This document shows positions 25,627 through 31,769 of a stretch of DNA of 45,124 nucleotides, piece by piece; the first letter of the stretch is position 1; every line of letters begins with the position of its first letter. The translations under genes were made by a program, and so were the position numbers. This stretch comes from a virus: the IMG/VR virus record IMGVR_UViG_3300001528_000384, positions 1-45,124 of that record. One strand, 5' to 3'. A model generated the notes under the pieces. The model ran no database searches. It was not told the DNA's origin and was given only the letters and a program-made list of their open reading frames with translations.

Positions 25627-25743
25627 ATGGGCGAATTCCTAGGTATTATTATTATGATTTCACTAGGTTTATTCGCCTATTTTTTATGCAAATTAAACGA
25701 TAGAAGTACAAATGAAAAAATATTGAAAAAGAAAGATGAATAA
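25627..25743 (+). CDS. 38-aa membrane peptide
   Basis: Below the track cutoff. RBS AGGAGATGA. MGEFLGIIIMISLGLFAYFLCKLNDRSTNEKILKKKDE. Confidence 0.35.
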   Translation: MGEFLGIIIMISLGLFAYFLCKLNDRSTNEKILKKKDE

Positions 25744-26215
25744 ATTAAAATATGAACATGCAATAATAACAAAAGATGGAAAAGCCTATAATATAAATAT
25801 TCATAAAGTAGTTGCTGAAACATTTTTAGATAAAAAAAGTTTTAAATCTATGCCTTATGAAGATAGGGATAGAATTGATTTAGATAAATTAGTAATAAAT
25901 CACAAAGATGAAAATCCTTCAAACAATCGTGTTGATAATCTTGAATGGTGTACTCAATGTTATAACATAAATTATGGCACTAGAAATAGCAAAGTTTCAA
26001 AGACGATGATAAATTTTGAAAAATATTCGGTAAAAGTAAATCAATATGATTTGGATGGTAATTTTATTAAAACATGGAATAGTTTGAAAGAAATTGAACG
26101 AACATTAGGATTTTCAAGATGTGGGATTTCTAAATGTTGTCGTGGCATTTATAAACAAATGAAAGGATATAAATGGAAATATTATGACAAAAAAAGAATT
26201 AAAAGAGTGGTATAG
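25736..26215 (+). CDS. HNH homing endonuclease (HNH_3 plus C-terminal NUMOD1-like HTH), lacking NUMOD4
   Basis: VINHKDENPSNNRVDNLEWCTQCYNINYG, then WNSLKEIERTLGFSRCGISKCCRG. Confidence 0.65.
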   Translation: MNKLKYEHAIITKDGKAYNINIHKVVAETFLDKKSFKSMPYEDRDRIDLDKLVINHKDENPSNNRVDNLEWCTQCYNINYGTRNSKVSKTMINFEKYSVKVNQYDLDGNFIKTWNSLKEIERTLGFSRCGISKCCRGIYKQMKGYKWKYYDKKRIKRVV

Positions 26216-28656: not shown

Positions 28657-28690
28657 AATTCTTTCAATCCTCTTTCTTTCTATTTTTTAA

Positions 28691-28885
28691 CTATTTTCTA
28701 TTATAATTGTGTAATTCATAAAAACTACACTTATAACCCATTTTTTCATCACATTTTTTAAAATCTTCTTTGATTTTGTTTATTATTAATATAGTGCTAG
28801 TTATAAATAATATAACTAATAATATTATTAATAATAATCTTTTAATCCATTTTTTTAAATGGTAGATTTTACCGTTTATTTTCAT
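28691..28885 (-). CDS. 64-aa membrane protein, first gene of the minus cassette
   Basis: RBS AAGGAAG. TM segment LLLIILLVILFITSTILII. Confidence 0.55.
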   Translation of the reverse strand: MKINGKIYHLKKWIKRLLLIILLVILFITSTILIINKIKEDFKKCDEKMGYKCSFYELHNYNRK

Positions 28886-28920
28886 CTCTTTTTCTTCCTT
28901 TCCTTTTCTATTACAATTAT

Positions 28921-28948
28921 ATTATAACATATTTAATAATAAAGTCAA
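28921..28948 (-). promoter_or_regulatory. strong sigma-70-type promoter of the minus-strand cassette
   Basis: The minus strand reads TTGACT, 16-nt spacer, TATAAT, with a TGt extended -10. It lies about 35 nt upstream of the first RBS. Confidence 0.6.
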
Positions 28949-29007
28949 TACCTTTTTACTACTTTTTTGTTAAAATGATACATTTTTTATAACTCACTTT
29001 ATATATA

Positions 29008-29139
29008 TACTACACTATAAACCTATTTACTACACTATATTAAGATTCACTATACTTAGTATGCTACTATACTACTATTATATATATATTACTATACTAT
29101 GTGTGTGTACTATACTTTATTATTTACACTATACTATAA
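29008..29139 (+). repeat. iteron-like array of ACTATA(C/A/T) motifs, all in one orientation
   Basis: Copies start at 29014, 29034, 29049, 29066, 29091, 29109, 29128 and 29133. An exact 12-mer TACTACACTATA occurs at 29008 and 29028. The array is flanked or interspersed by (TA)n, (GT)4 and (ATT)n tracts. Confidence 0.85.
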
Positions 29140-29145
29140 GCATAG

Positions 29146-29285
29146 CACTTATTATATATATATATTATTATTATTACATATTCTTTTTATTTTATTTTCT
29201 TTTATTAATTTTATTCTTTCTTTTATTATTAACCTTTTCTTTCTTCTTTTATTAGTATTTTCTTTTCTTTTCTTTTTATTTTTAT
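29146..29285 (+). repeat. strand-asymmetric polypyrimidine/AT tract
   Basis: Only one G (29255) occurs in 140 nt. TTCTTTT/TTATTTT-type runs dominate. The track ORFs here are low-complexity artefacts. Confidence 0.9.
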
Positions 29286-29478
29286 GTTAACTTAGTGTTC
29301 GCTTTTGTGGTTGTGTTACTTTTATAAAAAGAAATATAATAAATTTTTTCAACGTTCAATATTATATCAATATTGGAAGTTAAATGTTAAGAAAGTGTAA
29401 AGGCTACCCATACCACCCAAGCAATAAGCAGAAAATGGCTTAGTCAGTACCTCAAATAATTTTAAAACAAAATAAAAG

Positions 29479-29508
29479 TTGACAATAACCCCCCTCATAA
29501 AATACAAT
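29479..29508 (+). promoter_or_regulatory. sigma-70-type promoter of the HNH gene
   Basis: TTGACA (29479-29484), 18-nt spacer, TACAAT (29503-29508). Confidence 0.5.
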
Positions 29509-29531
29509 AGTTACAAGAAAGGAAGAGAACC

Positions 29532-30497
29532 ATGTGGAAACAATTTAGAGATACAAATTATGAAGTATCAGATAAAGGAGAAATAAGAAATAGAGTAACA
29601 CATAAAATTATTGCTCAAAATAATAAAGATAATAAACCAAACACATATAAAAAAGTGACAATATCAATAAAAGGCAAAAATAGTGTGTTTAGTGTCCATA
29701 GGATGGTATTAGAAGCATTTACTTATAGAGCAGATGATAAAGAAGTAAATCATATAAACTTAAAAAAAGACGATAATAGACTGTGTAATTTAGAATATTG
29801 CACTAGAGAAGAGAATAGAGAGCATGCTTTTAAGAATAATAAGAATATAGTTCAAAGGAAACCAGTGGTAGGAATAAATCTTGAGACTAAAGAAATAATA
29901 GAATTCAGAAGTTTGTATATGGCTGGGAAATATATTGCAGAAAAAAAGTGCAAAAAAGGTGAAAAAGTTATTAGCCATTATGCTACAACGATAAGTCAGT
30001 CTATAAAAGGTGAAATAAATAGTACAAATGGGTGTTATTGGTGGTTTAAGGAAGAATTTGATTTTAATGACATAGAGAAAATGATAGAAAGTAAAAAGAA
30101 ACCAGATAAATATACAAAAGAGCAGCAAGACATGATGAAAGAAAATAATTTAAACGTGTCTATCGTAAATAGAAGAATGAAAAAATACGGTTTAACTTTA
30201 GATGAAGCATTAATGTATAAAAAAAATCATATATTTGTAGAACCAAAAGAGATAGAACCAAAAGCCGATTCCAAATATATGCAAGGATTAGGGAAACGAT
30301 TTGGCAACTTGGAAGTTTTAGATGTAATAAGAATTAAAGGTACAAAGCCACTATATAAATGTAAATGCGATTGTGGAGAGGTGTTTACTACGCAAGCCAC
30401 GAATGTACTGATTGGGAAAACCAAAGGGTGTGGGCGTAATTGTAAATTAAAATTAAAAACCCCATTGACAGCCATCAAAAAAAGTGGTAACATTTAA
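29532..30497 (+). CDS. HNH homing endonuclease (NUMOD4 + HNH_3 + NUMOD1-like + CKCKCDCG module)
   Basis: WKQFRDTNYEVSDKGEIRN (NUMOD4). VNHINLKKDDNRLCNLEYCTREENREHAF (HNH). C-terminal GKRFGNLEVLD...LYKCKCDCGEVFTT. Confidence 0.75.
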   Translation: MWKQFRDTNYEVSDKGEIRNRVTHKIIAQNNKDNKPNTYKKVTISIKGKNSVFSVHRMVLEAFTYRADDKEVNHINLKKDDNRLCNLEYCTREENREHAFKNNKNIVQRKPVVGINLETKEIIEFRSLYMAGKYIAEKKCKKGEKVISHYATTISQSIKGEINSTNGCYWWFKEEFDFNDIEKMIESKKKPDKYTKEQQDMMKENNLNVSIVNRRMKKYGLTLDEALMYKKNHIFVEPKEIEPKADSKYMQGLGKRFGNLEVLDVIRIKGTKPLYKCKCDCGEVFTTQATNVLIGKTKGCGRNCKLKLKTPLTAIKKSGNI

Positions 30498-31274
30498 ATG
30501 TACTCAAGAACGAGTATGTGCTGATTTGTTGGATAAGAGAGAGCGAAAAAAAGTAAATAATCCAGAAGACACTATTCCTAAAACTTTTTATTCATAAAAC
30601 CAATCATATAAAAACTAAGTTCTCTCTTACCTCCTTTCTGAAAATGTTCTTTGAAAAGTAAGTAAATAGAGCCTTATGAAAGACTATTTGGAAAATAGTA
30701 AGGGTCTTGCCTTGAGCCCATTAGTTAAGAGAGAGGTTTCTTAATGGATTGGGTGGTAGATGCTAGTAATAGCGTGTATAGGACTTGGAAACCAAGGAAA
30801 AAGACAAGAGCGGTAGAGATAAGGAGATATAAAGGAAGAAAAACTAGTCGCCAGCAACTGATGAAAACGATAAGAGAAATCTTAAAGGGAGTAGCCATGC
30901 AATAGTTCTATTAACTGTGGTGGTTAAAAGATGAGTATGTAGAGCCGATAAGTTGGTAAGTGGTTGATACCTAGTGATAGGAGTAAAAATGACTAGAAAC
31001 TGTACGAGTAGCACAAATCCACTAAAAAAGGATACTCTGCTGATAGTAACCTAAACCGTGTGAAAGTTAGAAGTATCAGTCTTCTCTATGAATAAGAGGT
31101 AAAAACGGAGGATAGGTCGCTCCTACCGAGGATTTTTACTGCATAGTGCCTGAATAATGTTGAGCTTATCTTTATTAGTGCGAGGAACACCTGTTTACTT
31201 ATTTTTTAAAGAGCATTTTTGAAGCGAATGCTCTTTAGGATTATTTAATCCCCTGTGTGTCTGATTGTACAAAG
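30498..31274 (+). ncRNA. candidate large structured noncoding RNA (strand provisional)
   Basis: No ORF of 60 aa or more in six frames. G+C is about 38% by hand count at 30721-30840, versus about 25% in a coding line. There are nine or more local helices. The locus is bounded by a bidirectional terminator. Confidence 0.35.
30744..30905 (+). CDS. possible 53-aa basic peptide inside the ORF-free locus
   Basis: AGAGAGG lies 7 nt before the ATG. MDWVVDASNSVYRTWKPRKKTRAVEIRRYKGRKTSRQQLMKTIREILKGVAMQ. Its codons (AGG, GCG, CGC, CTG, CAG) are atypical for this genome. Confidence 0.2.
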   Translation: MDWVVDASNSVYRTWKPRKKTRAVEIRRYKGRKTSRQQLMKTIREILKGVAMQ

Positions 31275-31305
31275 AAAAAGGAGACTTTAATAAGCCTCTT
31301 TTTTC
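31275..31305. terminator. bidirectional rho-independent terminator
   Basis: AAAAAGGAGaCTT pairs with AAGcCTCTTTTTT around a TAAT loop. The A-tract/T-tract arms allow it to serve both rusA (-) and the + strand transcript. Confidence 0.6.
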
Positions 31306-31308
31306 GTG

Positions 31309-31686
31309 TTAAAATTTAGTAATAGTAATTTCTGTTCTAGGGTTTTCCTTGTCGTAATACACCCTAGAGCCGTCATGAGAAGATACAATAGTGTAATTAT
31401 CATCTAAAATAACACCATAATGTGTAAGCATGTCCGTTGTAGCCTCTAAAAGATTGTTTAAATCGCATTTTCTTCTAGTAGGCATGTAATATACGCATTT
31501 CATGGTGATAGGATAATCAATAGGAGTATCTAACTTTGGTAAAAAGGGTTTGCAATCCTTTTCGTATTGTTTGTATAGACTAGAAGGCATTATTATAGGT
31601 CTACCTTTAACTAAAACTATTCTTTGCGAGTTTTTTTTAGTTCTAGGTGGTATAGGAATATTAATGTGTAAAGGGGTCATATTCAT
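31309..31686 (-). CDS. rusA: RusA-family Holliday junction resolvase
   Basis: Start moved to ATG 31686 behind GGAGAG. PPRTKKNSQRIV...KCDLNNLLEATTDMLTHYGVILDDNYTIV is the RusA pattern. Confidence 0.7.
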   Translation of the reverse strand: MNMTPLHINIPIPPRTKKNSQRIVLVKGRPIIMPSSLYKQYEKDCKPFLPKLDTPIDYPITMKCVYYMPTRRKCDLNNLLEATTDMLTHYGVILDDNYTIVSSHDGSRVYYDKENPRTEITITKF

Positions 31687-31718
31687 TTGTTTCACTCTCC
31701 AAGTATATTTTATCACAT

Positions 31719-31747
31719 TAGACAAAAACGTTCAAATATGGTATGTT
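31719..31747 (+). promoter_or_regulatory. possible late promoter upstream of terS
   Basis: TAGACA, 17-nt spacer, TATGTT, with a TGg extended -10. Confidence 0.3.
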
Positions 31748-31769
31748 AAATACAAGGAGATAGGGATGT

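Follow-up and report, generated by a model that had tools for sequence, protein, structure and literature searches.

A full-length ROOL RNA upstream of the terminase genes in the genome of an uncultured phage

Introduction

ROOL RNAs were described in 2017 (Weinberg et al., PMC5737381). They are non-coding RNAs of about 580 nt from phages and bacteria, and they also occur on plasmids and chromosomes. Cryo-electron microscopy revealed in 2025 that they form RNA-only hollow cages larger than the ribosome (PMC12286853, PMC12990946). ROOLs at less than 50% similarity share the same flat monomer fold and assemble, protein-free, into closed dihedral cages, which are octamers for the env-120 and E. 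faecalis ROOLs and a hexamer for the L. salivarius ROOL with its very short apical stem (PMC12286853, PMC12990946). Inside the cage, the variable linker is disordered, and its deletion leaves assembly intact; the L8-J6/8 pairing is an intermolecular kissing loop (bridge B4), and L18 is a conserved symmetric kissing loop between the half-shells (PMC12286853, PMC12990946). ROOL RNA can equal 16S ribosomal RNA (rRNA) in abundance, yet it is dispensable, being non-essential in L. salivarius, and no function has been assigned to the family in the literature. Here we report on a ROOL locus in the IMG/VR virus record IMGVR_UViG_3300001528_000384, the whole 45,124 bp of which was analysed (hereafter the window). 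The best explanation for positions 30641-31219 on its + strand, to which we give a probability of about 0.9, is a ROOL RNA gene (RF03087) that makes up a small transcription unit by itself, carried by a siphovirus-like phage whose uncultured host is low in G+C.

The window RNA resembles the described ROOLs in its multi-junction fold with covariation, the pseudoknot flanking the linker, the L8-J pairing, the conserved motifs and the phage context, and its 579 nt compare with a family mean of 581 nt. Two other systems bear comparison. GOLLD is likewise a large ornate RNA of phages and prophages with no known function, forms an RNA-only cage and often lies near transfer RNA (tRNA) genes, but its sequence and fold are unrelated to those of the window ROOL. 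The pRNA of phage phi29 is also phage-encoded and forms a homo-oligomer through intermolecular loop-loop pairs, and the window ROOL adjoins packaging genes. However, pRNA is only ~120-174 nt long, belongs to the packaging motor, where it sits on the portal as an open ring of 5 members, and shows no homology to ROOL, whereas ROOL is ~580 nt long, forms a closed 28-nm cage and occurs in many non-packaging contexts as well as on plasmids and chromosomes.

Results

A ROOL RNA in the largest ORF-free gap

The largest stretch of the window without an open reading frame (ORF) of at least 60 aa on either strand is the 811-bp segment 30498-31308, as a previous sequence-only reading of this DNA had pointed out; the next-largest are 631 bp at the window end and 336 bp, and the longest ORFs within the segment encode 57, 56 and 53 aa. 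That reading had proposed a large structured RNA of the ROOL/GOLLD size class here, and a scan of the whole window with Rfam 15 at curated thresholds bore the proposal out. ROOL (RF03087) was matched on the + strand with 133.2 bits, compared with a gathering score of 99.1 (E = 1.7e-27), and the alignment runs end to end through model positions 1-574 of 574. The only other Rfam match in the window was a tRNA-Cys at 7489-7563, leaving ROOL as the sole non-tRNA family. GOLLD was matched neither in the window, where its gathering score was applied, nor in 29000-32000 at E <= 1. A permissive scan of the latter interval returned, besides ROOL, chance-level matches below 27 bits only, with no match to group I or group II introns or other large RNAs, and none for the leader or the 3' hairpins that flank the ROOL (Table 1). 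Searching 29400-32500 with blastn ('distant') against 50,697 GenBank phage records returned no match, and hence there is no cultured relative from which annotation could be transferred.

The region stands out in composition. G+C content of the ROOL span is 37.4%, compared with 27.5 +/- 3.3% for 562-nt windows across the whole record, only 0.4% of which reach that value, and the G+C maximum of the record lies at 30701, inside the ROOL core. The counts by which the G+C elevation had first been noticed were exact (38 G and 8 C in the 120 nt of 30721-30840; 15 G+C in the 60 nt of 16141-16200). The purine elevation claimed along with it does not hold over the whole element (60.3%, against a mean of 58.3 +/- 6.0%), and the excess of G is local, at about 30700-31000.

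Covariation supports the family fold

Thermodynamic folding did not separate the element from dinucleotide shuffles, with z-scores of the minimum free energy (MFE) of -1.9 on the + strand and -1.8 on the - strand, and the case for structure therefore rests on comparison. Relatives were collected as 40 IMG/VR loci through the large terminase (terL, 32468-34243) and as 113 viral contigs through the pattern GTGAAAGTT-N25-55-GGTCGCTCC, and are designated by L numbers where they need to be told apart. An nhmmer profile built from the window ROOL and its relatives matched 105 of the 113 pattern-found contigs. A single-sequence nhmmer search found 14 ROOL loci only, and three profile rounds raised the number of loci with ROOL-like sequence to 109 of 153, most matches covering just the 3' two-thirds of the RNA; the covariation test was thus limited to 14 full-length relatives. 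These were aligned with the window copy by MAFFT from sequence only (alignment A1; mean column identity 62%). When 12 relatives were scanned, 10 passed the Rfam gathering score for ROOL, with scores of 121-185 bits.

Projecting the nested structure of the Rfam model onto the window left 147 of 159 pairs with both residues present, 130 of them canonical. Across A1, 77.6% of the cells in this structure were paired, compared with 40-49% when partners were slid by 1-3 columns; both sides had changed in 89 of the 147 pairs, compared with 36-52 in the slid controls; and none of 500 shuffles reached the observed covariation score. The RNA strand is the + strand: ROOL was matched on that strand only, and several G-U pairs are invariant (e.g., 15/15 and 14/15), which would be C-A mismatches on the other strand. 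The conserved ROOL motifs GUGAAAGUU, GGUCGCUCC, GUACGAGUAGCAC and UUGAUACC were all present in the window, and at the GGUCGCUCC site the variants are one base off (GGUCGCACC in L001 and L002, GGUCGCCCC in L005). A chance or compositional match, drawn by a G-rich island in an AT-rich genome, would fit a cmscan bias term of 30.5 bits and an MFE z of only about -1.9, but the E-value, the alignment of all 574 model positions, covariation far above both controls and the invariant family motifs reduce the probability of such an artefact to a negligible level. Decay of a protein-coding gene is hardly more credible as the origin of the region. It is overlapped by three ORFs (53-57 aa); however, PHROG scans of the five small ORFs of the region found no match even at E 0.1, conservation tracks base pairs and not codons, and the covariance model is matched at full length.

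The family model also sorts the local helices that had been listed from the sequence. Those at 30672-30703, 30718-30747, 30784-30796 and 31106-31128 are true ROOL stems on the + strand, and those at 30498-30519, 31208-31236, 31238-31251 and 31275-31305 are genuine helices located beyond the RNA or at its edge. The remaining two, at 30971-30996 and 31031-77, are not family pairings, since the model pairs 30991-30996 with 30844-30849 instead and assigns 31024-31049 to the unstructured variable linker. The repeats reported with them were found where they had been placed: TAAGAGAG at 30534 and 30726, CTCTCTTA at 30622, and TAGAGCC at 30667 and 30940. A folding switch between CTCTCTTA (30622) and TAAGAGAG (30726) was considered and set aside; it is kept only in L001 and L002, where both arms are identical.

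Tertiary contacts and the variable linker

Two further pairings outside the nested structure are conserved. The top non-nested covarying run joins AGUGG to CCACU at the 5' flank of the variable linker; 93% of its cells were paired, 4 of 6 pairs change on both sides, and relatives carry GUGUAG/CUACAC, GUGCAG/CUGCAC, AUGUCG/CGACGU or GUCUUG/CAAGAC instead. By its position, this pairing would correspond to the published J9/12-L13 pseudoknot, which ties the junction following P6/P9 to that flank, the naming following from stem order. The second pairing joins a UGGU loop to GCCG, with 96% of cells paired and with UGGU/ACCA or GACA/UGUC in relatives. It corresponds by position to the L8-J6/8 pairing (bridge B4) and, by analogy, may be intermolecular here as well. 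Taken jointly, 94% of the cells of the two pairings were paired, compared with 28-50% in slid controls. The GGUCGCUCC motif is probably L18, judging from the order of stems; a 4-nt palindrome, sought in its loop to confirm the published symmetric kissing loop, was not found.

The ROOL copies of L001 and L002 are 88% identical to that of the window and have a linker of 52 nt, indicating that the linker of the window is the product of a recent 26-nt deletion. A linker of 26 nt should be tolerated for assembly. The apical hairpin between P6 and P8 is short, with 5 bp and a GAAA loop, so that the cage of the window ROOL may be a hexamer or an octamer.

An extended terminal stem sets the minimum extent of the RNA

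An inverted repeat of 29 nt (I1; 30641-30669 with 31191-31219, 86% complementary) extends the terminal stem P1 by 13 bp past the Rfam model, pairing 30641-30653 with 31207-31219. RNAduplex predicted a long terminal helix (~28-38 bp) in 11 of 13 ROOLs of the subfamily, with z from -4.5 to -8.6 (z = -8 for the window); the extension is present in the window, L001, L003, L005, L047, L062, L081, L091, L092, L098 and L102. In an alignment that included the flanks, 90.6% of the cells of the 13 extra pairs were paired, compared with 43-58% after sliding, and two-sided changes occurred in 6 pairs. Because the extension covaries, the RNA spans at least 30641-31219 (579 nt). Such a long P1 helix is reminiscent of rRNA processing stems.

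The 3' strand of P1 shares nucleotides with the local hairpin 31207-31237, which makes the two pairings mutually exclusive. Comparative support goes to the P1 extension, and the hairpin is confined to the clade of the window: L001, L002, L003 and L005 have a hairpin of different sequence at this first 3' site, and other ROOL lineages have none. We also considered this hairpin as a canonical intrinsic terminator and rejected it, as it has no U-run; the terminator lies at 31274-31305. Elsewhere, a tRNA on the same strand abuts the ROOL 3' end or overlaps it by ~10 nt (L043 6772-6843, L098 2018-2088, L122 3149-3221). These abutting tRNAs suggest co-transcription and end formation by tRNA processing in other ROOL lineages; the window has hairpins at that place.

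A probable separate transcription unit downstream of an inserted HNH gene

The sequence-only reading saw no convincing internal promoter and suggested that the RNA might be made as a 3' extension of the mRNA of the upstream HNH endonuclease gene. A candidate promoter, TTGACA-17-(TG)TAACAT, is nevertheless present where the HNH ORF ends, in overlap with its last codons. L001 has this site at 3931-3959, and a 36-nt block containing it is identical in L001 and L002, which have the ROOL but lack the HNH gene; the sequences flanking the block have diverged. L001 and L002 (96% terL identity) are collinear with 28673-29475 and 30456-34258 of the window, and because 29476-30455 is missing from them, the HNH gene is an insertion of ~980 bp, bounded by TTGACA copies at 29479 and 30465. 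Its ORF (29532-30497), which carries NUMOD4 and HNH_3, reaches into the promoter block that was there before it and ends at 30497. The gene has the appearance of a homing-endonuclease cassette inserted into the region of the ROOL promoter.

Since the promoter block is kept in relatives without the HNH gene, ROOL does not depend on the HNH promoter. It is true that this promoter (29479-29508) is the best match in the region (11/12) and that nothing resembling a terminator separates ROOL from the HNH stop codon, so a real RNA that arises chiefly as a long 3' tail of the HNH mRNA deserves consideration. We regard it as unlikely, however, given that L001 and L002 lack the gene and have ROOL and promoter block unchanged, that the upstream genes of L003 and L005 are unrelated, and that other ROOL loci come with promoters of their own. 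Transcripts reading through from the HNH promoter may contribute to ROOL synthesis and are not required for it.

A search for a promoter abutting the RNA in the window gave no more than TATAAA at 30607-30612, a weak -10-like sequence that lacks an acceptable -35. Other ROOL loci (L122, L081, L062, L043/L152 and the L044 group) have near-consensus sigma70 promoters, several with an extended -10, at 0-25 nt upstream of the conserved 5' motif UCUUUGA (e.g., TTGACA-17-TGTTATAAT in L122); in L043/L152, the -10 overlaps the Rfam-aligned 5' strand of P1.

The leader between the candidate promoter and the RNA, ~150 nt in the clade of the window, is conserved with an indel in L001 and L002 and unrelated in L003 and L005, and its predicted fold is not significant (z = -1.6). 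It contains ACCTCCTTTCT (11 nt, 30629-30639), which lies 9 nt before the extended P1 and includes the sole CCTCC on the + strand of the whole window; this motif is conserved in L001 and L002 and absent from L003 and L005. All 11 nt of ACCTCCTTTCT match the anti-Shine-Dalgarno 3' tail of Firmicute 16S rRNA. Seen from the - strand, the motif has the form of a strong ribosome-binding site, with the next ATG 22 nt away and opening an ORF of 9 aa. It could be a vestigial ribosome-binding site or a mimic. At the other end, the bidirectional terminator noted earlier was detected again; it separates ROOL (+) from the convergent RusA gene (31309-31725, - strand) and is conserved in L001, L002, L003 and L005.

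ROOL as a facultative cassette near the terminase genes

Proteins encoded in the window include terS, terL, an SPP1-type portal, a major head protein, RecT, a tyrosine recombinase, an M23 peptidase, a DUF285 protein and two HNH endonucleases. Terminase relatives in genome assemblies come from metagenome-assembled genomes labelled Bacilli bacterium, Clostridia or Lachnospiraceae. The ROOL unit lies just beyond the 3' end of the reverse RusA gene and upstream of terS, terL and portal, with 560 bp to terS. The order of reverse RusA, terS and terL is common in this phage group, and ROOL beyond RusA was found in five genomes only (the window, L001, L002, L003 and L005). L004, with 69% terL identity, has no ROOL at this position and carries unrelated sequence with a small ORF instead (1-1046), and an Rfam scan within 6 kb of terL found no ROOL in ten relatives at 51-62% terL identity. 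This pattern of presence and absence makes ROOL a facultative cassette in a variable position, which fits its reported non-essentiality in L. salivarius.

Beyond this phage group, terminase genes directly follow ROOL in three further unrelated terminase lineages (L043, L047 and L127, 0.2-1.4 kb downstream), and elsewhere its neighbours are tail-fibre, ParB, metallophosphatase, AAA ATPase, NrdD, glycosyltransferase or endolysin genes. These surroundings bear on the alternative, put forward before, of a packaging site (cos or pac) conserved at the DNA level, in which case the hairpins would be incidental. The distance of 560 bp to terS and the position directly upstream of terminase genes in L043, L047 and L127 are in keeping with it. 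However, substitutions keep RNA pairs, including strand-specific G-U pairs; L004 lacks the element at that position, as do the ten more distant relatives near terL, where the same terS and terL are present; ROOLs adjoin tail-fibre, ParB, NrdD and glycosyltransferase genes as well; and the region has no terminal-repeat-like or multiple direct repeats. A packaging site is thus not needed to account for structure or conservation, and the HNH gene is a homing-type insertion rather than a packaging HNH. We consider this alternative very improbable and retain the ROOL RNA gene as the explanation of the locus.

With respect to tRNAs, the tRNA-Cys (GCA) is the only one in the window and none lies within 23 kb of ROOL, whereas 32 of 109 viral ROOL loci have one at 1 kb or less; nearness to tRNA genes is typical of ROOLs without defining them. 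In four more distant relatives (L019 at 4394, L023 at 3728, L026 at 4405 and L036 at 2246), a tRNA-Cys precedes terS by ~0.9-1.2 kb, and RusA was not detectable in these four. The tyrosine recombinase (23976-24872) is a possible integrase and the phage is perhaps temperate. Other genes of the window include a RecT recombinase (20315-21181) and the second HNH endonuclease gene (25736-26215).

Table 1 Features of the ROOL locus in window coordinates.
Feature	Position	Strand	Description
ROOL RF03087 match	30648..31209	+	133.2 bits; 130/147 model pairs canonical; covariation
ROOL RNA, limits from this analysis	30641..31219	+	Rfam match plus 13-bp P1 extension; 579 nt
P1 5' strand	30641..30669	+	pairs with 31191-31219; ~29 bp, 16 bp in Rfam model
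P1 3' strand	31191..31219	+	last 11-12 nt shared with 5' arm of hairpin 31207-31237
Loop UGGU	30918..30921	+	complementary to GCCG 30944-30947; covaries
Partner GCCG of UGGU loop	30944..30947	+	covariation
Pseudoknot strand AGUGG	30959..30963	+	top non-nested covarying run; partner CCACU 31019-31023
Pseudoknot partner CCACU	31019..31023	+	5' flank of variable linker
Variable linker	31024..31049	+	26 nt; at the expected place
Invariant motif GUGAAAGUU	31060..31068	+	invariant in alignments A1 and A5; half of search pattern
Conserved motif GGUCGCUCC	31115..31123	+	apex of long 3' arm; identical in 12/15 A1 sequences
Candidate sigma70-type promoter	30465..30493	+	TTGACA, 17 nt, TG-extended TAACAT; 10/12 plus TG
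Leader	30496..30640	+	hairpin 30498-30519; long-range stem ~30531-30545 with 30619-30633; motif ACCTCCTTTCT
Two local hairpins after the RNA	31207..31237, 31238..31251	+	fold of 31195-31312, z = -3.9
Bidirectional terminator	31274..31305	.	detected on - strand; + strand fold with T6 tail

Discussion

Several observations weigh against reading the locus as a ROOL RNA gene with its own transcription unit. The score of 133 bits lies at the low end of the 121-185 bits of the relatives, 12 model pairs are deleted, including a small hairpin of the 3' arm, and the linker of 26 nt is unusually short, being the shortest of 15 ROOLs (43-68 nt in the 14 relatives). The two tertiary pairings were partly picked on the same alignment that was used for counting, with the position of the pseudoknot matching the published one. 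The MFE z is unremarkable and neither proves structure nor tells the strand. The candidate promoter is a consensus match (10/12) that lies 155 nt from the RNA, whereas other ROOL promoters abut it, and the evidence for expression of the locus consists of promoter and terminator sequence matches. The 13 bp by which P1 exceeds the family model are a further difference, one that is common to the subfamily. Unlike the published members, the window copy is known from sequence alone.

For the ROOL of the window, transcription would begin at the candidate promoter, with a start at ~30500, and would stop at or before the bidirectional terminator. The terminal stem of ~29 bp would clamp the ends of the RNA and may act as a processing stem that frees it from the 150-nt leader. 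By analogy with the published cryo-electron microscopy structures of other ROOLs, the folded RNA would self-assemble, protein-free, into a hollow, closed homo-oligomer with eight or possibly six subunits, and its short variable linker would point into the interior of the cage. As a working guess, the cage might sequester or shelter a host or phage macromolecule as a dispensable fitness factor.

ROOL heads the block of terS, terL and portal in at least 4 separate lineages, and a tRNA-Cys is comparably placed in relatives; the long terminal stem, together with the leader, suggests processing like that of rRNA. These features raise the idea that ROOL is tied to the packaging or late module in this phage group and is not a free-standing passenger, which we regard as a long shot. 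If it were true, with the cage acting in virion assembly or DNA packaging, or sheltering phage or host tRNAs at the late switch, it would be the first function for an RNA-only cage.

The window copy is an ordinary new member of an already known family and adds little new knowledge of what kind of RNA ROOL is. A P1 that is 13 bp longer than in RF03087 is, for this subfamily, a small practical correction for construct design. The value of the locus lies in its setting in a 45-kb phage, a compact and clean case where the ROOL cassette is self-contained and its ends are defined. Should a host be found, close relatives that naturally have or lack ROOL at the same position, together with one relative set apart mainly by a 26-nt linker deletion, would provide the comparisons that are wanted for a functional test.

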